Source of the DNA: Candidatus Latescibacterota bacterium
GTDB taxonomy: Bacteria > Latescibacterota > UBA2968 > UBA8231
Length of the DNA stretch: 64,000 nucleotides
Reading direction: 5' to 3'
Assembly (NCBI GenBank): GCA_965208105.1
Contig: OZ242318.1
Location: 1,408,001-1,472,000, forward strand
The notes beneath the pieces are model-generated. The model was not told where the DNA came from. It did not search any database and worked only from the letters and a program-made list of their open reading frames with translations. Of this stretch, positions 1,720-12,712 are shown piece by piece; the first letter of the stretch is position 1, and each line of letters opens with the position of its first letter. A program made the position numbers and the translations under genes.

Positions 1720-4700
1720 TTACAGATAGCCGAACAATACGGTAAGATAGAACTTCCACGGATTCTTGTCCTTCACCTCGTCGATCCCGTAGGCCGCATC
1801 CACCTGCACCCGGGTGGGAAGGCCGAAGTAGGACAGGATATCGCAGCGCAGCTGTCCGCCCACGTCGCGCAATGGCCCCTTGCGGCCGAAGACTGGGTCG
1901 CGTTCGCCCACACTGCCGTCCCAGGCCTTGCCCACACCACCGTAGACCGCCCCGTAGACCCTTTCGAGGTAGAGGTGCAGGATGCGCCGGCGAAGGTCGG
2001 GGAGGATGGGGAAGCGCAGAGTCAGGTTGCCCATGGCGGCCTTGCGGCCTTCCATGCTGTAGAAGGTGTACCCCTTCATGAAGGGCAGGCCGCCGAGTCG
2101 ATAGTCGAAGAAATCGCCGATCAGCTCCGGATCGTCCACCTCCTCACTGTCGATCCACCCCCCGTAAAATCGAAGGCCGAGGGCGGCGTTCCCCGGCAAG
2201 CCCATGTTCTCGCGCCAGTCCAGGGTGAACTGGTTGTAGAACAGGCCGACGTACTCCTCGTCAATGAAGCTGGACCGGTCGTTGAACCCCTCGAGGAAGA
2301 AATTGAACAGGCGGCTGTAGCGGAAGTAGAGCCGGCGCCCGATGGGGTTTATGTCGCGGTCCTGGCGCCTGGCCAGCGCCTCGAGCCGGTAGGTCAGCCC
2401 CAGGTCGATGCCGTTGAGATAGGTGTATCCAAAGGGTTTCTGCTCGACCCGCTCGAACCCCAGCCTCCCGTCCCGCCTCGGCACGAAAGCGTCGTACTCT
2501 ACACTGGCGTCGTAGCGGTCGTAGGTCGCCGACAGGGACAGCTCCGCCGACCTGCCGAGCTTGCCGCGCAGGCCGACGGACAGCTGGTTGAGATTGAACT
2601 TGACCCCGTTGATGACTGCAGACCGGGCCGCGGAGCTGTCGCCCCGGGAAGAATAGCGGCGCTGGTGAAAAAATTCCACGAACAACGTGGGACGCCACTC
2701 CCTGTACTCGTACAGCGCAAAGAGGTCGCGGTCCCCGTTGGCGGGCGCAACCGCCAGGCCGGTGAAGACGTTCTGCCTGCCCATCGCGTCCCCGCCTCCC
2801 GCGTAGGCCCCCAGTTTCAGGCGGCCCTCGTCCACAAACAGGCGCGGCAGCAGAGCCGCCCTCAGGAAGGCGATGCCCGACGGCCTGGACTTCCATTCAC
2901 TCGTGGATTCGACCCCGGAAAGGTCGATGTAGCCGGGTGCCGGCGGCAACCGGGGCAACGCGATCTCCGGCGCCTCCCGGCCATCGATCCGGCGGATCCC
3001 GTATCCATCCTCGCCGTAGGCGGCGAAGGCGACCATTCCCCGGGCATCGACGCTGGGATGCAACCCTCCCCCCGGCAGATTGGTCAACTGCCGCACCGTC
3101 CCGGCGTGGAGATCCACCGCGTAGATGTTGAAGATGCCGCTGAAGTCCGAGGCAAAGATCACCTCTTTTCCGTCGCGGCTGAAGACCGGATCCCGGTCCG
3201 TGCCCTCCGTGGCCACCAGCACCTCGAAGCGCGTTGCGGGTGGCGCCGCCGGCTCTGCCGATGCGAGCCGGACATCCCCTCCGTTCTCCACTTCGATCAG
3301 GACGATATCGCGCTTGCCCTGGCGTCCGATGGAGAGGACGAGACGGCGGCCGTCCGGTGACCAGCGCGGGGTGTAGAGCTGGGTGCCGTCCGCGAAATCG
3401 GTCAGCATGCGCACCTCGCCTCCGTCTGCCTTCATCAAGCCCAGGTTGTTGCTGCCCCCCTGGTTGCGCACGAATGCGATCCAGCCTCCGTCGGGGGAAT
3501 AGGACGGGTAGAAAGCCCGCAAGCCCCGGCTCAGCCGCCTGATGCGCGGCGATTCCGGGCCGAAGCCTCCCACCATTCCCGGCAGGGTCCAGAGGACCCC
3601 GGATGCCAGGCCGCGGTCCTCACCATCCAGATCGTACTCGTAGATATCCGCCTGCCGCGAACCGTACTTGTCGGCCCTGTCCTTGCGCACGAACAGCAGG
3701 CGGCGGCCGTCGGGCGACCAGCTCAGGGAGGAAGGAGAGACCCTGGGAACGAGGACCTCCTCGTCTCCGGACTCCACCTCGCGCAGCACCAGGGCGTGCA
3801 GTCCGTAGTGGCGCATGCGGCTGGACAGAAAAGCCAGTTTGCCGCCGTCCGGTGAAAAGGCCGGCCACATATTGGAGAATCCCTTCGCGCTGACTACCTC
3901 GCCCTGGCGCAACTCCCCCAGGGCGCCCATCTGCTCCTCGTACTCCCGCTCCATGGACGCGCGCCAGTCGTCGTATAGGGTCCGGCCCGGCACCCCCAGT
4001 GCTTCCTCGATGGCGCCGCTGAAAGTGAGATCCGACCACTTCGAGGCCGCCCTGCAGATAGCGGCCAGCTTCTCCTCTCCATAGGTCCGGACGATGTAGC
4101 GCACCAGGGCATAGCCGTGGTCGTAGACATACTCGTTGCCGAAGCCGCGCTTGCCGAAAACCCCCATATCGTCGAGGGAAAGCAGACCCCCGTTCAATAC
4201 GGCGGTCCGCAGGACCATGTCGCGGTGAGAGTCCCAGCGGTCGAAGCGCGCTCCCTCGACCTGGTACTGGGCCACACCCTCCGAAAACCAGTGGGGGACC
4301 GCGATGGTCATCAGGGGGTAGGACGCCAGCCAGTCGGGAAATCCGATCAGGACATCGGGCCGATTCTTCTCGCGCTGGTAGCCGAAGTACTGGAGGTAGA
4401 GGGCAGGCACCCGCTGCGGGCCCTTGCGGGCCGCCCCGAGGGAAACGATGTGGACGAACTCGTGGGTGATGACGTTGCGCAGCCAGTCCGATGTGCCGCG
4501 CAACTCATAGTCGTGCTCCAGGGCGGTGGTCCAGATCTCGATGGTGTCCTGAAAGAAGAAAGCCACGCCATTGGCGTAGTCGTCGTGGTCCTTGAGGATG
4601 ATGCGGACCTTGGATCCGGGCTCGTAGCCGTATAGCCGGGTCACCGGACCGTAGGCCTGTTCCGCTGCCTCTGCAGCGCGCGCCGCCGCCCCTTCCAGTC

Positions 4701-4830
4701 CCTGGTGGTAGAGGACGCGGAAATGTTCCGTTTCCAGGAGCTGCCACTCCAACTCGGGATGGTTCTGGGGCCATGCCGCCGACGAGCAGGCCAGCAGCAG
4801 GAAGAGAACAGCTACGGGACCACGCCTCAT
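1720..4830 (-). CDS. Gluzincin peptidase domain + TolB/PD40 beta-propeller + C-terminal BamA/Omp85-like beta-barrel protein
   Basis: HEFVH...PHWFSEG zinc motif; repeated P-x-[WF]SPDG blades; amphipathic C-terminal strands ending FYLTVLFGYL. ATG at 4830 overlaps the upstream stop (ATGA). Confidence 0.8.
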   Translation of the reverse strand: MRRGPVAVLFLLLACSSAAWPQNHPELEWQLLETEHFRVLYHQGLEGAAARAAEAAEQAYGPVTRLYGYEPGSKVRIILKDHDDYANGVAFFFQDTIEIWTTALEHDYELRGTSDWLRNVITHEFVHIVSLGAARKGPQRVPALYLQYFGYQREKNRPDVLIGFPDWLASYPLMTIAVPHWFSEGVAQYQVEGARFDRWDSHRDMVLRTAVLNGGLLSLDDMGVFGKRGFGNEYVYDHGYALVRYIVRTYGEEKLAAICRAASKWSDLTFSGAIEEALGVPGRTLYDDWRASMEREYEEQMGALGELRQGEVVSAKGFSNMWPAFSPDGGKLAFLSSRMRHYGLHALVLREVESGDEEVLVPRVSPSSLSWSPDGRRLLFVRKDRADKYGSRQADIYEYDLDGEDRGLASGVLWTLPGMVGGFGPESPRIRRLSRGLRAFYPSYSPDGGWIAFVRNQGGSNNLGLMKADGGEVRMLTDFADGTQLYTPRWSPDGRRLVLSIGRQGKRDIVLIEVENGGDVRLASAEPAAPPATRFEVLVATEGTDRDPVFSRDGKEVIFASDFSGIFNIYAVDLHAGTVRQLTNLPGGGLHPSVDARGMVAFAAYGEDGYGIRRIDGREAPEIALPRLPPAPGYIDLSGVESTSEWKSRPSGIAFLRAALLPRLFVDEGRLKLGAYAGGGDAMGRQNVFTGLAVAPANGDRDLFALYEYREWRPTLFVEFFHQRRYSSRGDSSAARSAVINGVKFNLNQLSVGLRGKLGRSAELSLSATYDRYDASVEYDAFVPRRDGRLGFERVEQKPFGYTYLNGIDLGLTYRLEALARRQDRDINPIGRRLYFRYSRLFNFFLEGFNDRSSFIDEEYVGLFYNQFTLDWRENMGLPGNAALGLRFYGGWIDSEEVDDPELIGDFFDYRLGGLPFMKGYTFYSMEGRKAAMGNLTLRFPILPDLRRRILHLYLERVYGAVYGGVGKAWDGSVGERDPVFGRKGPLRDVGGQLRCDILSYFGLPTRVQVDAAYGIDEVKDKNPWKFYLTVLFGYL

Positions 4831-7775
4831 CTTCTCACCGCCATCTTTACGACGGCGACCTCCCTGCCTCCATCCGGGTCTCTGGCTTCCAGGCGGCACA
4901 GGTAGAGGCCGCTGGCGTAGTTCCTGGTGGACCAGGTGAATTCGCTCTCGCCCTGGATCGGCGCATCCGCGTTTCTCTGCAACCGGTCCACCCGCCCTCC
5001 GATGGCGTCGAAGACCTCCAGGTCGAGCCTGGCCGGCCGGCTGAGGAAGAACCGCAGATGAGCGTCGCCGCCGCCCTCGACCGGATTGGGATAGCAGTAG
5101 ACCCGTTCGCGGGGAAGCAGCGCCTGCTTGTCGGAAACGGTGTCAACAGGCGCCGCTACAGGTGGATGGGCGCGGGTGCCGGCCGCGCTGAAGCCGTACT
5201 GGCCCCACCCCGCCAGGCCTCCCTCGTAGGCCGGAGTAAACCGCTGCGGCTCCCAGAGGTAGAGAGCCTCGCCGGCGAGAGCGGCCAATTCCATGCCGCC
5301 GTCCCCGTCGAGGTCCGCGCCCAGGGGCGTGAAGCGCACGGGACCCGCCGTCAGCAGGGGAAATGCCGCCAGTGACATGCCTTCTCCGCCGAAGCCGTAA
5401 ACCCCATGGCCGGACCCGGCCAGGATCTCCTGCCCGCCGCCTCCGTCCAGATCGACCAGGACCGCAGAGCCTTGCAGGCGGCCTGCCTCCTCGAAGCGGG
5501 CAGGCTGCAGCGGAAAATCGGCCTGCGGGATGCCGTTGCCCCTCAGCGCGTGGACCCGGTCGGCGCCGAGGGCGACGATCTCGAGCAGCCCGTCCCCGTC
5601 CACGTCCCCCAATATGGGAGCGGCGCCGATGGAGTCGGCCAAATCGCGCGCGAAGACCTCACCGCGGGCAGACCATGCCTGCACCGCACCGGCCCTGGTG
5701 GAGGACACGATCTCGTAGGCGCCGTCTCCATCCAGGTCGCCGCTCGCCGGAGCCAGCAAGGCTTCCCCGTGAGGGTCCCTCAGCTTCTCCAATCCATCCG
5801 GCCTCAGCCGCCACAAGCCTTCGCCGCCGGCCAGGACGAGCTCCACCGCGCCGTCGCCGTCCGCATCGGCTGCTCCCAGGGCATGGGCACTTGCGTTCCG
5901 GCGCTGCAGTACGGCGCCGGTGTGGGCGTCCAGCAGCACCAGCCCGCCCGCCCCGAGGGCGAGCACGGCGCGTCCGGGAAAGAGGTCAAGATTTGCGGTG
6001 AAGAGACCAGTGGCCGGATTCGCCTCGAGGACACGGGACCACAGCGCCTCCTGCCCTTCCGCCCGCCAGGCGCTCACCTCGCCGCCCCGGGCGACGAAGA
6101 TCTCGACCCTGCCGTCGGCGTCGGCGTCGGCGGCTGCCAGTATGTCCGCTCCCTCCAGGAACCACGGTGAAAAGCCCTCCTCCGCCCGGGCGAGCCCCAC
6201 CCCTCGCGCGCTCTCGACCAGCAGATCCACCTCGCCGTCGCCTTCCACGTCCGCTCCCTGCAGGCGCTCACCTCGCGCCAGGGGAAGCGGCCAACCGCGC
6301 CGGGCGCGCTCGAAGCTGATACCGACCCGCATGCTGTCCCCGGGGCTGGAGAGGACCTCCACCCGGATGCCGCTGGCCGCCCCGGTGTTGCTGCGGCTGT
6401 CCGGCCGGGTTTCAGGTCCGAACACGGTCTGGCCCCCCACGAAGAAGGGATCCCGCGGCGTGCCCTCGTCGTGATTCGGGCGCGCAAAGGTGGCCTGGCC
6501 GATGTCGCGGAAGCCGTCCGCCTCCTCCAGCGCAATGCCCGGCCGCACCGGGTCGTTGTTGATGGCGCCGGCGCCGATCCTGTCCTCGATCACCGCATCG
6601 TCCACGTGCCAGACCAGAATCCCCGATCCGGGGACAAAGGCATCGTAGGCCTCGACCTCGAGCCAGACCCCGGCCTCGTCGGCGCGGGAGAACTCGATCT
6701 TCCCCGAATCCAGCCACACCATGTCTTCGCGGAGGGAAGCTCCGTCGACTCCCGGGGGTATCCCCCTGTTGCCGCGCTGCTGCCGGTTCTCCAGCAGAAA
6801 GTATTCGGTGGTGCTGATGGGAATGCGAACGGCCTTGGGCAGGTCCACCCCCTGCAGGTCCGTGGCGGCCAGCACCAAGGTGGTGTCGCGTTCGACCATC
6901 ACCGGCTCTATCCAGCCCAGGCGCGCCTTGCTCCAGGCCATCGGGTGGGGCGGCGCGAAACCGACCGTGAAAATCAGCGAATCCTGCAGCACGTACCCCC
7001 CCGCGTTGGAGCCTACATCCATCAAGCTCCAGGTCCCCAGGGCGGGCTGGCCGTCGGCGAAATTCGACAGCCCGGGCAGGCCCAACTGGTGGCCGAAGAA
7101 CCTGGCCAGGAGCCCGTTGAGGCCGGCGCGGCCGTTCTGGCTCCGGGCTTCGGGAAGAATCCAGCCGTTCGGGATGGCGAATTGCCCCTCGTCCACCAGC
7201 AGGGGACCACCCAGGAACCTGCTCAGGTCCAAGCTGTCGAGATACACCGAGCGGATGTCGTTGAGCTCACCTGTCTCGTACCCGGCGCCGGCGTGGAATA
7301 TCAGGAAGCTGTTGAACTCGGCAAAGCGCGGACCCAGGGCATCGGCGTCGGCCAGCTCCACGGCGTCGCGGAACAACTGCCCCCACTGGCTGCCGATCTC
7401 TTCCTCGGAGCGCCCGGTGGCGTAGCTCAAGGCCGGGCGCGGCAAGGTATAGGCATTGTTCCGGCCATGGGGAAAAACTGCGAATTCGATCTCCACCCGT
7501 CCCTCGGAAACCTTGCTGTAGTAACGAGAGAGGGCCTGCAGATGGTTGGCGAAATAGGTGGAATCGTGAGGCGGGGTGTCGTAGGGGGCGGGATAGCCGG
7601 GCCGGGCTTCCAGGAAGTGGCGCAAATCGAATTTGCCCCTGCCCGTAGTGGTTGGCTCATCCGGTTCTTCAAGGGGGAAATCCACCCGCAGGGCCAGAAT
7701 GCGCCACTCCTCGGCGGACCAGGTCGCACCGGCACTGCACAACAGCAGCGCCAGGAAGATCTTCAGCAACAGCAA
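4827..7775 (-). CDS. M6 (immune inhibitor A)-like protease homolog with degenerate zinc motif, FG-GAP repeats and T9SS C-terminal domain
   Basis: FHAGAG, WSLMDVG Met-turn, W-K-RLGW and EYFLLENRQ are M6 hallmarks, but the zinc motif reads ARFFGHQLGLPG. DxDGDG repeats follow, then a YPNP...ASGLYLCRL CTD. Confidence 0.8.
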   Translation of the reverse strand: MLLLKIFLALLLCSAGATWSAEEWRILALRVDFPLEEPDEPTTTGRGKFDLRHFLEARPGYPAPYDTPPHDSTYFANHLQALSRYYSKVSEGRVEIEFAVFPHGRNNAYTLPRPALSYATGRSEEEIGSQWGQLFRDAVELADADALGPRFAEFNSFLIFHAGAGYETGELNDIRSVYLDSLDLSRFLGGPLLVDEGQFAIPNGWILPEARSQNGRAGLNGLLARFFGHQLGLPGLSNFADGQPALGTWSLMDVGSNAGGYVLQDSLIFTVGFAPPHPMAWSKARLGWIEPVMVERDTTLVLAATDLQGVDLPKAVRIPISTTEYFLLENRQQRGNRGIPPGVDGASLREDMVWLDSGKIEFSRADEAGVWLEVEAYDAFVPGSGILVWHVDDAVIEDRIGAGAINNDPVRPGIALEEADGFRDIGQATFARPNHDEGTPRDPFFVGGQTVFGPETRPDSRSNTGAASGIRVEVLSSPGDSMRVGISFERARRGWPLPLARGERLQGADVEGDGEVDLLVESARGVGLARAEEGFSPWFLEGADILAAADADADGRVEIFVARGGEVSAWRAEGQEALWSRVLEANPATGLFTANLDLFPGRAVLALGAGGLVLLDAHTGAVLQRRNASAHALGAADADGDGAVELVLAGGEGLWRLRPDGLEKLRDPHGEALLAPASGDLDGDGAYEIVSSTRAGAVQAWSARGEVFARDLADSIGAAPILGDVDGDGLLEIVALGADRVHALRGNGIPQADFPLQPARFEEAGRLQGSAVLVDLDGGGGQEILAGSGHGVYGFGGEGMSLAAFPLLTAGPVRFTPLGADLDGDGGMELAALAGEALYLWEPQRFTPAYEGGLAGWGQYGFSAAGTRAHPPVAAPVDTVSDKQALLPRERVYCYPNPVEGGGDAHLRFFLSRPARLDLEVFDAIGGRVDRLQRNADAPIQGESEFTWSTRNYASGLYLCRLEARDPDGGREVAVVKMAVRR

Positions 7776-7821: not shown

Positions 7822-8865
7822 TCAGAAGGCCATGTTCAGAGAGAAGCGCGCATTATCGTCTACGGGTGTGTCGGAGCCGATCATGTAGGCCACGTCCAGC
7901 TGGAAGATGTTGTACTTCAGCCCGACCCCGAGGGTCCAGATCTTCAACTCGCCGTCCTCGTCGAGCGAATAACCGCCGCGCATGGCGAAAAAGGCATCGC
8001 CCTGGCCGTAATCGTAGCGATATTCGCCGCCGATGTGCAGGTCCATCTCTTCGAACTCGCGCTTCAATGGCTGGTCGGTCCAAGCGGTGAACAGATTCCT
8101 GACGAAGGAACCATCGGCGATGAGAGGCTTGTAGATATCCATGGACAGGAGGATATCGTTGTATTCGGAATCCAGCGCCTGGTAGGCCAGGCCGACGACA
8201 ACGTGCTGGGGGAGTGGATCGGCCTGGCTGGCATCTATGTAGACCATCTTGGGACCCAGGTTGCGCAAGGCGGCCCCCACACTGAGTAAAGGAGATGCCT
8301 TCCACAACAGACCCAGATCCGTCGCGAAGCTGTTTCCCACTCCCTTGCCGCGCTCGATACCGGCACCCTGGCCCGCGAGGTGGCTGCGGATGAACTTGAG
8401 CCCGATGCCGGCCGCCATGTTATCCGAAACCTGGTCTCCATAAGCCGCCGACACCGCCAGGTCGTAGCTGCGGAAAGTCCCCTGCTCGTTGCCGCGCTCG
8501 TCGGTTCGCAGCTGCTCTCCGAGGTTGAGGAGGGCGATATTCATCCCCACGTTGCCCCAACCCTCCAGCGGTTGGGCATAGCCCAGAAATTCATAGGACA
8601 GATCGTCGGCCAGACCGGGAAGCCATTTCATGTGGGTAAAATTTATCTGCTTTTTGGTCTGACCCGACAGAGCGGCGGGGTTGAAATAACTTGCCGTGGC
8701 ATCGTCGGCGATGGCTACGTAGGACTCGCCCATGGCGATTCCCCTCGCTCCCGGCTCTATCAGCAGAAGCAGTACCGCCGCCCCGCTTTCAGAGGTGGCT
8801 GACGCCTGTCCGGAACCGAGGCAGACGAACAACCCCGCCAGCAGCATTGAGAAGGTCTTTTTCAT
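7822..8865 (-). CDS. porV: PorV/PorQ-family T9SS outer-membrane beta-barrel
   Basis: LLIEPGARGIAMGE, DDATASYFNPAAL and HMKWLPGL motifs; signal peptide; C-terminal Phe; GGAGG RBS before ATG 8865; directly downstream of the PorU homolog. Confidence 0.8.
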   Translation of the reverse strand: MKKTFSMLLAGLFVCLGSGQASATSESGAAVLLLLIEPGARGIAMGESYVAIADDATASYFNPAALSGQTKKQINFTHMKWLPGLADDLSYEFLGYAQPLEGWGNVGMNIALLNLGEQLRTDERGNEQGTFRSYDLAVSAAYGDQVSDNMAAGIGLKFIRSHLAGQGAGIERGKGVGNSFATDLGLLWKASPLLSVGAALRNLGPKMVYIDASQADPLPQHVVVGLAYQALDSEYNDILLSMDIYKPLIADGSFVRNLFTAWTDQPLKREFEEMDLHIGGEYRYDYGQGDAFFAMRGGYSLDEDGELKIWTLGVGLKYNIFQLDVAYMIGSDTPVDDNARFSLNMAF

Positions 8866-8950: not shown

Positions 8951-11900
8951 TCACTTGAGGACTTGCAGCGCCCCCATTCGTTCGGCTTCCTGGCCCTCCG
9001 GGACCTCCACCCGCACGCTGTATAAATAGGCACCGTTGGCAAGATCGGCGGACGGGGTCCAGGCCACCTTGTTGAAACCAATCTCGGTGCCGCCCTCCAT
9101 CTCGTCCACCAGCCTCCCGGACACCGAGAACACCCTGATGCGGACCTTGCTAGCAGCGACCTTGAGGCTATAGGTGAAATGCCCCTCCATCTGCATGGGA
9201 TTGGGAAAGAAGAGCAGGTCGGCGAGGGCGGAATCGGGCTCCTCGGCGATCCGGACCAGGACCTCGGCGCTGGCAGAATTGTTGAAGGTATCCCAGGCCT
9301 TGAGACGAATCGCATGCTCACCTGGTTCCAGCTCCGGCAGCGGATACTCCAGCACCCCCTCCTTGTAGCTGCCGCCTTCCACGATGAAGTACTCGGTAAC
9401 CTTGAACACCTGCCCGTCGACGGCCAGCTCGATTTCGTGGCCTGTCTCACCGGTGATATTTATCCCGCTCTCGTCGCGTATCACCGCCCGCAGAATGGAT
9501 CCGTTGGGAATGGTCGTCCCGCTGCTCCCCAGGAAACCCAAAGAGATTTGCGGGCCTTCCCGGTCGGCTTCCACCCCCTCGGCAGTCCCGGCCAGGACCA
9601 GGTCCCGGACCGATCCGAAGCCGGATGGCCGCCCCTCGCCCCATACAAAGGCGCTGACGCTGCCTTCCACCCCCTGGTAGGTGATGTCCTTGGGCACCCG
9701 GAATGCGGTTTCGAAACGACCCCGCTCCACCTGGAACCTACCGCGGAACAGAGGTCCCCCCAGCTGTTTGTAGGTCAAACCGTCCAGGTGGCTCCGCACC
9801 GCCGAATCGAACACCTTCACCCAGACGCGGCCCTCGAAGTCGTCTAGGGCGACCCCCCGATCATCCACTACCTGGCCTCGAATCGGCACCTCGCTCAGAG
9901 CCTGCAGGGTATCGGCAATCTCTATCTCCACCCTGTATGGCGGCATGGCCAATCGCGTGGCCGGATCGCCTATGAGCGAATAGCGCTGGACATTTCTCCT
10001 GTCCAGATCGGACAGCCGCACCATCTGCTTGGCCTCCATCAAGGCAAGGCCCACGGGGACATAGGCGCGGCCGGAGCGATACATCTGCTCGTGGAACCTG
10101 AATGCCAGGGTCATGTTGCTGCCGTGGTAGCCGACCCTCGTGGCCGAAATCATACCGATGATGCCACCCTCTGGCAGCTTCAGCAGATCCTCCGGCATGG
10201 AGCTGCGCACGGGATCGTCGAAAGGTCCCACCTGGCTGGCCGCCATGTACATCAGCGGCAAGCGCCTGCCGTTGTCGATGGCGCCCAGGTCGCGGGAGAC
10301 CACGAACATGCGCTCGTGAGCCAGGGTCCGCCAGTTGCCGTGGCCCAGGAAGGTGAGAATCAGGGCCCCTTCGTTGAAGCTCCGGATGAAGGCATCGCGG
10401 GCGCGGGGCTTGGTTCGGCCTTCGAGGGGATACTGCGCCAGGTAGAGCTTCACGAGGTCCAACTCCGGAGGCAGGTAATTTTCGGCCATGGTCTCCGCGT
10501 CCCAAAGAAACCACCTCTCGACCGCCCCCGGATTGTCCAAATTACTCAAATCGTCCGCTATCAGGAGGACCCGGCTCTGCCAGGGGCCGGCCTCGGGGCG
10601 GCGGTCGTAATCGATCACCTTGTCCACCACGAGGTCCGCTTCCGCTTCCGTCTGCACCGTCAGCCGGCCGATTGCCATGTCGGGCAGCGGATCGTCGCCA
10701 GCCACCCGCACGTACCACTCATCGTAGGTGCTGTCCCAATCCTGATAGGGAGGGATCCAGTTGCCCGGGCTGCTGCCCGAGTTGTTCTTGTAGTCGTAGG
10801 TGCCATCTCCCAGCAGCACCACGAAGAAGGGCGCCGGATCCCAATGTTCGGCTGCATGTTTGAGAAAGTTGCGGATCGCCGCAGGGTCCACCAGGCCCCC
10901 GGAAAACTCGTCGTAGATATCCTGCACATCCACGACGGCAGTGCGCAGCGGCCTTCCCAGGCGGTCGTCCTCTGCCCTCCAGGCCGCCAGCCGGTTCGCG
11001 GCCCCGGAAAAATCACCGTGGGTGATTATCAGGTACTCGGTCCCGTTGCCTGCTCCCCTCAAGCCGCCGGAACGGTCGACTTCGAGCCGAAGGGGCCGCT
11101 TGAGGCGCGAGGGACCCAGCGCAAGGTAGCTCCTGGGAACGGGACCGGACACGTCCTGGAAAGTCGCGATGCCCGAGGACGGGTCATAGACGAAATCGTC
11201 GATCTCGGCAAGCCCGGAGGAAACCTCGAAGATGCGCGGCTCCTCCTGCGCAAATCCGGATAGTTGAAATTCCACAGTCCCCTCGCTCCCGGGAGCGTCG
11301 AAGACCAGCTCATTGCGCTGGGCGACGAACTGCCGGCTGTACTCCAGCTCGTACCAGTCCAGGCGGGTCAAGGATTCGTCTTCGTGCACCAGCCCCAACT
11401 GGTTGACCCCCTCCCGGGCGCCCCGGGGCGCCTGCGCCGCCAGAGTAAAGGAGCGGGCGCCGAAGAACTGAAATTCACCCAGCACCTCGTCGTTCCACTT
11501 GAAGGTGAACCGGTGGTCCCTGTTGGTCCATCCGAAGAAGCGCACCCGGATGTCCACCGGATCGGCAACGGCACCCTGGACAACGGTCGAATAGTTGCGG
11601 GCATTCCCCTGGAAATCCTCCCAGTACCACTCGTATCCGGAACGCACGGAAAAGGTCTGGACGAGGATGATTTCCTCCGACTCGACGTGCTCGCGCACGC
11701 GGTAGCTCTGCGGCCTCAGGGGCGCCGGCGCCTGCAGTGCGCCGCTGCGCCGGGTGGCGCGTCTGCCGGCGACCTCCCCGTGGAACTCGAGCCAATACAC
11801 GTTGTCGTGGGTATAGGGGTTCTTCCTGAAAGCGTAGGCCCCGTCGCCTTCTCTGTACTCCCAGCGGTTCACGGGCTCGCCATGGAACAGGATGGAATCC

Positions 11901-12712
11901 TCGGGATCCAGTCTGCCGTCTCCACCATCCTCAACCACGATGGCCTGTTCCTCCAGGACAGCCCCGGCCGCATGGGAGATGCTCAACGGAAGGACTCTTC
12001 CTCCGCCGTACAACATGCGGATGCGCATCGGGTCGACCGCCGCCAGATCGATTCCCGCCGACTCCAGGTCGGCTCCGCTGATGCGGTATATTCCCCCCTC
12101 CCTCAACACCACCCGGACGCGTTCGGCAGTACTGCTCTGCAGGGATGGCCGCTCCCTCCTCCCACCCCGGTGCCGGCGCCAATCCCGGGCCTGCTCGTAG
12201 TTAAGCAGGGTCTGGTTGAAGAACATTTCCGCCCAGCGATCCCTTCTGCCGCTCCCCGGTGACCTCCGCCCTTCCGCAAAGCGCAGATCCACAACCACGC
12301 GGTCGTAGACCTGGACCGAGCCACCCGCCTCTCGCCGGGGCGCGAAGACCAGCTCGACGACGCGCTGGTCGCGGACGAATCCCTGCGCGCCCAGGAAGGC
12401 CGGCCCCTCGAGGTCCTCGGGCAAGGATGGGAGGGAGGCAGGTTCTGCAGGTGAGGATGTCCTCGCCTCGACGACTTCGAGGCTGACCTCCCCTTCGAGC
12501 GGCAGCCCGACGAGCCAACTGCGGCCGGCGGCAAGCCGCAGGTCGACCGGTTCGGCTTCGTAGGCGATGCGCAGGTAACCTGGCCCGCTTTCCACAACGC
12601 GCACTTCGGCGTGCAATGCGCTCAGCACCAGAAAGACGGCTGGCAGAGCGGCGAGAAAGCACTGAGATCGGAAAAGAGGAAAAGGAGGGAGGAACAAACT
12701 AAAGAGGAACAA
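8951..12712 (-). CDS. porU: T9SS sortase PorU homolog (peptidase C25 fold) with Ser at the catalytic Cys position
   Basis: IYDEFSGG..DPAAIRNF, LLGDGTYDYK, DMAIGRL, FLGHG, LIGDPA, VPKDI, LKAWDTFNNS and FPNP CTD. The catalytic segment reads MAASQVGPFD. Exact start uncertain. Confidence 0.85.
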   Translation of the reverse strand: MFLFSLFLPPFPLFRSQCFLAALPAVFLVLSALHAEVRVVESGPGYLRIAYEAEPVDLRLAAGRSWLVGLPLEGEVSLEVVEARTSSPAEPASLPSLPEDLEGPAFLGAQGFVRDQRVVELVFAPRREAGGSVQVYDRVVVDLRFAEGRRSPGSGRRDRWAEMFFNQTLLNYEQARDWRRHRGGRRERPSLQSSTAERVRVVLREGGIYRISGADLESAGIDLAAVDPMRIRMLYGGGRVLPLSISHAAGAVLEEQAIVVEDGGDGRLDPEDSILFHGEPVNRWEYREGDGAYAFRKNPYTHDNVYWLEFHGEVAGRRATRRSGALQAPAPLRPQSYRVREHVESEEIILVQTFSVRSGYEWYWEDFQGNARNYSTVVQGAVADPVDIRVRFFGWTNRDHRFTFKWNDEVLGEFQFFGARSFTLAAQAPRGAREGVNQLGLVHEDESLTRLDWYELEYSRQFVAQRNELVFDAPGSEGTVEFQLSGFAQEEPRIFEVSSGLAEIDDFVYDPSSGIATFQDVSGPVPRSYLALGPSRLKRPLRLEVDRSGGLRGAGNGTEYLIITHGDFSGAANRLAAWRAEDDRLGRPLRTAVVDVQDIYDEFSGGLVDPAAIRNFLKHAAEHWDPAPFFVVLLGDGTYDYKNNSGSSPGNWIPPYQDWDSTYDEWYVRVAGDDPLPDMAIGRLTVQTEAEADLVVDKVIDYDRRPEAGPWQSRVLLIADDLSNLDNPGAVERWFLWDAETMAENYLPPELDLVKLYLAQYPLEGRTKPRARDAFIRSFNEGALILTFLGHGNWRTLAHERMFVVSRDLGAIDNGRRLPLMYMAASQVGPFDDPVRSSMPEDLLKLPEGGIIGMISATRVGYHGSNMTLAFRFHEQMYRSGRAYVPVGLALMEAKQMVRLSDLDRRNVQRYSLIGDPATRLAMPPYRVEIEIADTLQALSEVPIRGQVVDDRGVALDDFEGRVWVKVFDSAVRSHLDGLTYKQLGGPLFRGRFQVERGRFETAFRVPKDITYQGVEGSVSAFVWGEGRPSGFGSVRDLVLAGTAEGVEADREGPQISLGFLGSSGTTIPNGSILRAVIRDESGINITGETGHEIELAVDGQVFKVTEYFIVEGGSYKEGVLEYPLPELEPGEHAIRLKAWDTFNNSASAEVLVRIAEEPDSALADLLFFPNPMQMEGHFTYSLKVAASKVRIRVFSVSGRLVDEMEGGTEIGFNKVAWTPSADLANGAYLYSVRVEVPEGQEAERMGALQVLK

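Follow-up and report, generated by a model that had tools for sequence, protein, structure and literature searches.

The window analysed here, a stretch of 64,000 nucleotides from a Candidatus Latescibacterota bacterium (contig OZ242318.1, positions 1,408,001 to 1,472,000), contains a gene for PorU, the enzyme completing type IX secretion, in which the position of the catalytic cysteine is occupied by a serine (Ser826). To our knowledge, a thioester-forming His-Cys mechanism is the only chemistry so far described for PorU. In this Ser form of PorU a single catalytic residue is altered, to the one other residue able to serve as nucleophile, and the serine is fixed throughout a clade whose conserved catalytic core is otherwise unchanged. 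The best reading of these data, one for which we consider the chances evenly balanced, is that the Ser-form PorU would be an active Ser-His variant of the C25 sortase.

Descent, architecture and context all identify the gene as PorU. Its open reading frame (ORF) starts with TTG, contains no internal stops and scores 631.9 bits against the profile for PorU, a type IX secretion system (T9SS) sortase (NF033707, cut-off 420), covering profile positions 6-1092 of 1095. The Pfam domain PF01364 (Peptidase_C25) was found over its entire profile (1-374) at aa 560-921 with an E value of 1.2e-79. When the protein was compared with the PDB chains by phmmer the sole match was the Porphyromonas gingivalis PorU 6za2 (E 3.3e-57, approximately aa 562-1245), and in this alignment the C-terminal region of the ORF pairs with the end of 6za2 that carries the C-terminal sorting domain (CTD). 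The probable CTD of the window protein itself scored 18.1 bits with TIGR04183 in hmmscan, below the cut-off of 23, and 23.6 bits in the search of the whole genome, over it. The sequence-only reading made earlier of this window had announced a 1253-aa PorU at this place, and its coordinates proved exact, with the cut-off of the PorU profile exceeded.

The same reading had pointed to an intact histidine motif, to a serine codon in the segment expected to carry the nucleophile and to a single cysteine in the whole ORF, and these observations stand. The motif FLGHG (aa 788-792, window 10337-10351) contains His791, encoded by CAC, and the segment YMAASQVGPFD (aa 822-832, window 10217-10249) contains Ser826, encoded by AGC, a single base away from TGC. 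The only cysteine is found at aa 18, probably within a signal peptide, as judged from the hydrophobic N-terminal stretch that precedes the conserved start 'EVRVVESGP' of the homologues. In the alignment with 6za2, the Cys of 'ATCD' stands opposite Ser826, and the His of 'AGHG' opposite His791. The catalytic cysteine of P. gingivalis PorU is given as C690 in the available part of PMC5121618, and the available part of PMC10202324 describes for PorU a Cys/His dyad and a thioester intermediate. Measured against the His-Cys dyad of clan CD, both positions are right in the window protein and the second residue is Ser instead of Cys. The Ser-form PorU cannot act as a cysteine peptidase. An acidic pair, Asp720-Asp721, might provide the third catalytic residue, to judge from its conservation and from its place in the structural model: Asp720 is Asp in 129/129 Ser forms and in 129/130 Cys forms, and Asp721 behaves likewise.

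The fold of the catalytic domain was modelled with AlphaFold2 (aa 540-940, 71 aligned sequences), with a mean predicted local distance difference test (pLDDT) of 93.6 and a predicted template modelling score (pTM) of 0.92. In this model His791 comes directly after strand 246-250, Ser826 two residues past strand 281-285 and Asp720/721 after strand 175-180, so that each of these residues lies just beyond the C-terminal end of a core strand. According to the available text of PMC4357240 the clan CD dyad sits on loops after two strands, and the positions of His791 and Ser826 in the model match that placement. The Foldseek ranking was headed by gingipain R (1cvr, TMq 0.73), followed by Kgp, PorU 6za2 (E 1e-9), separases and caspases. 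A location of the serine off the nucleophile site was also considered; the alignment with 6za2 puts Ser826 on the site itself, and the model puts it just after a strand, as the fold expects.

The reality of the serine codon was examined in other assemblies and in relatives. The codon is covered by contigs assembled from three DNA runs, which belong to three other studies, and among the differences listed none was found at 10235-10237 or at the His codon 10340-10342, the nearest to the Ser codon being at 10172 and 10261; the comparison was made with assembled contigs, not reads, and 27 differences lie beyond those listed. These near-identical porU contigs come from two sponge metagenomes and one marine metagenome (runs X5, X6 and X8, three studies). 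In addition, one sponge metatranscriptome (run X20) contained four short contigs partly matching porU, some of them with many differences, which hints at transcription weakly at best and was not used as evidence. Among 5.8 billion proteins, the query and its 120 best matches (at least 62% identity in the catalytic domain) carry the motifs AASQ and GHG without exception (121/121), and the homologues with a source name come from Candidatus Latescibacteria or Latescibacterota. The 24 genomes examined first within the same family all had a Ser orthologue (24/24, 43-82% identity), with AASQ in 23 of them and AASA in one. The serine is therefore conserved clade-wide, well beyond what chance would give, and is no private mutation confined to one genome.

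The distribution of the two forms over the phylum was followed in 168 genomes, 106 of which gave a match at E <= 1e-60, and the site could be read at 50 loci. Serine was found at 35 of them, namely 30 loci of the window's own family f1 (including the window gene), two of family f9 and three extra copies in f1. The remaining 15 loci, from nine other families (f5, f6, f7, f8, f10, f11, f12, f13 and f14), all have Cys (15/15), encoded by TGC or TGT. In the other three families of the window's class no PorU orthologue was detected at E <= 1e-60 (f2 0/31, f3 0/3, f4 0/22), and many of these genomes are more than 95% complete. The second family with serine, f9, is placed only as belonging to the same phylum. 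The absence from f2, f3 and f4 together with the Ser form of f9 suggests that either the sister families lost the gene or the Ser form was transferred from one class to another. Several genomes of the family carry multiple full-length PorU copies (2-4 per genome, 46-64% identity; G017, G014, G002, G005, G018 and others), and the three extra copies whose site was read (in G014, G018 and G165) all have Ser.

A wider search with HMMER in 1.84 billion representatives retrieved 15,361 matches at E <= 0.001, of which the best 150 were examined, 147 of these covering both catalytic sites. Among these best matches, Ser was found in 13 of 147, all of them with at least 52% identity, and Cys in 133, of which 130 aligned directly and three (P0209, P0256 and P0237) with the local alignment one column off; the match of P0163 was a spurious alignment. 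The catalytic domains were then aligned with MAFFT, giving 260 rows (129 Ser, 130 Cys and the spurious one). Position 826 is Ser in 129/129 rows of the Ser clade, at pairwise identities down to 47%, and His791 is present in 129/129 Ser rows and 130/130 Cys rows. Invariant in the Ser clade (129/129) are His791, Asp720, Asp721, Glu800, Asp832 and Asn866. Among the 130 Cys forms 41 positions are conserved in at least 90% of the rows. In the Ser clade 40 of these have an unchanged residue, again at 90% or more, none is relaxed, and the sole switch is C826S. Five positions near the catalytic residues in sequence are, by the alignment, fixed together with this switch. Position 825 is Ala in 129/129 Ser forms whereas Thr or Ser is found in 126/130 Cys forms, position 787 is Thr in 120/129 Ser forms against Asn in 112/130 Cys forms, and in the Ser forms position 827 is Gln (128/129), position 861 Gly (129/129) and position 863 His (123/129).

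We have also compared pairs of proteins matched on their identity outside the catalytic domain, a comparison that is descriptive only since the pairs are non-independent. At 35-40% identity in the rest of the protein, the catalytic domains of Ser pairs are 55.3% identical versus 43.8% for Cys pairs, and at 40-45% the values are 60.6% versus 48.0%. As far as can be judged from these alignments, constraint on the catalytic domain of the Ser clade is not relaxed and is no weaker than on that of the Cys forms. This pattern argues against decay, without proving activity.

The history of the change was reconstructed with a maximum-likelihood tree of 64 catalytic domains (the 22 most similar rows plus every third of the remainder), with the long C25 paralogue of the window genome as outgroup. 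In it 11 Ser rows group with a single Cys row (P0130) at a support of 99 in the Shimodaira-Hasegawa-like approximate likelihood ratio test (SH-aLRT), and nine of the Ser rows form a core with a support of 100. A single state change suffices on this tree, with the Ser rows on one side of a branch whose support is only 20, so that the position of P0130 is not fixed. At the 25 loci where the Ser codon was recorded it is AGC (18) or AGT (7) and never TCN (0). Codons AGC and AGT only, each one base from TGC or TGT, fit one T-to-A change followed by synonymous drift. Furthermore, none of the residues encoded by the one-base neighbours of AGY (Asn, Thr, Gly, Arg, Ile and Cys) was seen among these 25 loci. 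The motifs AACA (P0130, with Cys), AASA (P0129) and AASQ look like steps along one path, and the tree and the codons together give the Ser form a single origin.

In our best explanation a single ancestral T-to-A change (TGY to AGY) turned the catalytic Cys into Ser. If the protein is still an enzyme, the following mechanism could be proposed. His791, probably oriented by the invariant Asp720/721, would activate Ser826, which would attack the bond preceding the CTD of the cargo; an oxy-ester acyl-enzyme would replace the thioester, and water or an amine acceptor would resolve it, with hydrolysis or transpeptidation as the respective outcome. The active Ser-His variant is favoured because Ser and His have been held exactly through the history of the clade with no decay elsewhere in the conserved core, because neighbouring positions were refixed and duplicated copies keep Ser, and because the genome has a large set of CTD cargo and candidate partners of the attachment complex. 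The fuller statement, that the caspase/gingipain (clan CD) fold would here have its first natural enzyme with a serine nucleophile, an oxy-ester T9SS sortase produced by one T-to-A change and then retuned by a few substitutions in the second shell (Ala825, Gln827, Thr787, Gly861 and His863), is more tentative and in our opinion falls just short of an even bet. Serine may have been favoured since a surface-exposed thiol is vulnerable in an oxic, sponge-associated life.

Several points weigh against an active enzyme. Cysteine peptidases and sortases usually lose their activity when the Cys is mutated to Ser, and the pseudo-orthocaspases of cyanobacteria, thought to be inactive, conserve Ser at this very position, although they have lost the His too. 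Diversity is lower within the Ser set than within the Cys set (minimum pairwise identity 47% versus 24%), which inflates the conservation figures of the Ser set, and a substrate-binding scaffold could also keep its pocket conserved. The same genome has a C25 paralogue that bears the Cys, and the M6-like metalloprotease homologue encoded in the same gene string as porU has no metal site, indicating that inactive protease folds are in use here. Finally, clan CD is described only as a clan of cysteine peptidases in the available parts of the reviews PMC12445089 and PMC4357240.

The strongest alternative is a conserved pseudo-enzyme, in which a non-cleaving PorU would have a structural role in the PorV-PorU attachment complex, or bind the CTD there, and the cargo would keep its CTD, be released or anchored otherwise, or be processed by another protease, for example the Cys-bearing C25 paralogue. 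We take this to be a plausible account, if one that is rather more doubtful than probable. The change of Cys to Ser is the classic inactivating one for cysteine peptidases, a second C25 protein with Cys and CTD is found in every genome of the class examined, and the M6-like neighbour lacks HExxH. In P. gingivalis, the available part of PMC5121618 reports that inactive C690A and PorU-null mutants still show surface PorZ, and no serine enzyme on the fold is described in the available parts of the two clan CD reviews cited above. Yet Ala, Gly, Thr or Asn should be acceptable at a dead site, and what is found is Ser in 129/129 and His in 129/129, with 0/41 of the most conserved core positions relaxed in a domain that appears at least as constrained as in the Cys forms, and with Ser kept in all the extra gene copies read. 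Besides, the paralogue that would do the processing looks like cargo rather than a sortase, having a C25 propeptide and no PorV beside it.

This paralogue is the only other C25 gene in the genome (G000:C1:3098511-3104030, L033:4512-10031). It encodes 1839 aa with the motifs GHG and SCFNG, retains the catalytic Cys and has, besides the C25 propeptide, a T9SS CTD and a CARDB domain. The possibility that it is a second true PorU with Cys was considered and rejected, given its scores with the PorU profile (306.8, cut-off 420) and the PorU2 profile (224.8, cut-off 450), its propeptide and the lack of any PorV-family gene nearby. From its domains it looks like a secreted cargo protease of the gingipain type and not like a second sortase. 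Its relatives (approximately 1800-2400 aa) are found throughout the class, including the families without PorU.

An enzyme with a relocated nucleophile or a different chemistry, in which the attack would come from another residue or from a bound cofactor and Ser826 would have no more than a structural role, is quite improbable. A rebuilt site is conceivable from the five further positions fixed with the switch, among them the new His863 (123/129). However, no column of the full-length alignment of 34 Ser-clade rows, where an alternative conserved Cys was looked for, has Cys in more than 26% of the rows, the canonical His and the acidic residues are unchanged, and no particular alternative residue is indicated. 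An artefact, whether through faulty assembly or sequencing or through a mutation private to one genome, has a negligible probability, because the contigs of three other studies agree among the differences listed and more than 120 independently assembled homologues carry Ser. Both options offered by the sequence-only reading, a dead scaffold or a serine-nucleophile variant, are still live, and the evidence leans to the active variant.

The arrangement porU-porV claimed for this locus was also found as described, the next gene downstream (85 bases away, same strand) being of the PorV family. It scored 251.6 bits with PorV_fam (cut-off 90), 164.7 with the PorV equivalog (below its cut-off of 250) and E 7.7e-17 with the Pfam PorV domain. 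The M6-like protein encoded next to it scored 335.9 bits with NF052323, 'T9SS-dependent M6-like inactivated metalloprotease', below the cut-off of 600, and neither an HExxH nor an HxxxH motif was found in its sequence. From its domains and its CTD-like tail it is probably a T9SS cargo encoded in the same gene string as porU. It is thus a second protease fold without canonical catalytic residues in this string. Further downstream (1720-4899, minus strand) is the gene of a 1059-aa protein in which an intact HEFVH (Peptidase_MA_2) is fused to PD40/TolB-like beta-propeller repeats. The coordinates of the features are collected in Table 1.

Table 1 Features of the porU locus, with positions in the window
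Feature	Position	Strand	Basis and remarks
porU orthologue, 1253 aa	8951..12712	minus	NCBIfam NF033707 and Pfam Peptidase_C25; stop TGA 8951-8953
N-terminal leader, aa 1-36, probable signal peptide with the sole Cys (aa 18)	12605..12712	minus	hydrophobic stretch judged by eye
C25 (gingipain/PorU-type) catalytic domain, aa 560-921	9950..11035	minus	PF01364, AlphaFold2 model, Foldseek
Asp720-Asp721 acidic pair, candidate third residue orienting His791	10550..10555	minus	after core strand 175-180
Catalytic His791 (CAC) in GHG	10340..10342	minus	aligned with 6za2; invariant; directly after model strand 246-250
Ser826 (AGC) at nucleophile position, motif AASQ	10235..10237	minus	aligned with the catalytic Cys of 6za2
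Probable C-terminal T9SS type-A sorting domain (CTD), aa 1169-1249	8966..9208	minus	TIGR04183
porV-family outer-membrane barrel gene	7822..8865	minus	PorV_fam; likely ATG 8865 after GAGGGAGG
M6-like metalloprotease homologue, 982 aa, FG-GAP repeats and CTD-like tail	4827..7775	minus	NF052323

The window genome (4.85 Mb in a single contig, 93.9% complete, 8.1% contaminated) contains at least 45 ORFs with matches to the T9SS type-A CTD. Other components were also identified, such as a SprA/Sov of 2082 aa (603.8 bits summed), five PorV-family genes over the cut-off, a candidate PorQ-like barrel (132.8 bits, below the cut-off of 220) and a candidate PorZ-like propeller (37.5 bits, cut-off 27). TIGR03517 did not detect GldM/PorM in this genome, and the matches to GldK/PorK were no more than partial and weak. 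On this evidence from profile searches the core motor or ring of the T9SS in Latescibacterota may be very divergent, replaced or absent.

Among the top matches of a full-text literature search there was no paper on a serine at the PorU nucleophile, nor on PorU or the T9SS in Latescibacteria. A large natural clade with Ser and an otherwise intact site is a ready-made evolutionary experiment. If the Ser form is active, a caspase-like fold runs on serine, clan CD becomes a mixed-nucleophile clan like clan PA, and an oxidation-proof sortase scaffold is at hand. If it is a scaffold, a T9SS operates with a non-cleaving PorU, which changes the view of how cargo is released or anchored outside the Bacteroidota. 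In either case, automatic labels such as 'sortase PorU' or 'C25 family cysteine peptidase' hide the missing cysteine of the Ser-form proteins. The lineage with Ser-PorU consists of uncultured marine bacteria, and its strict retention of Ser may reflect a cysteine protease fold that works with serine.

Compared with the known systems, the Ser form resembles P. gingivalis PorU in its C25 domain, the His of the GHG motif, a probable C-terminal CTD of its own, the adjoining PorV gene and a genome with many CTD cargo ORFs. It differs in having Ser826 for C690, AASQ versus ATCD and no Cys in the mature chain, in its host, which belongs to the Latescibacterota and not to the Bacteroidota, and in that a thioester intermediate is impossible. 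The gingipains RgpB and Kgp (1cvr and 4rbm) come closest to the modelled domain in structure (TMq 0.73 and 0.67), although at 17-19% identity, and unlike the Ser-form PorU they are C25 cysteine peptidases secreted as cargo, which have a His-Cys site and are specific for Arg or Lys. An acidic third residue has been described for them. The long Cys-bearing paralogue with the C25 propeptide is closer to this gingipain type. A precedent for one fold using Ser or Cys with the same His is found in clan PA, where chymotrypsin has Ser and picornain 3C has Cys, although the fold differs from that of clan CD. Such a Ser/Cys pair is not described for clan CD in the available parts of PMC12445089 and PMC4357240. 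Other close counterparts are the PorU proteins of the Cys type in further Latescibacterota families and in P0130, which of the Cys forms is nearest (51.5% domain identity). They share with the Ser form the architecture, the length (approximately 1250-1350 aa), 40/41 core positions and the wider clade of the tree. They differ from it by the Cys at the site, in most cases with Thr or Ser before it and Asn at position 787.

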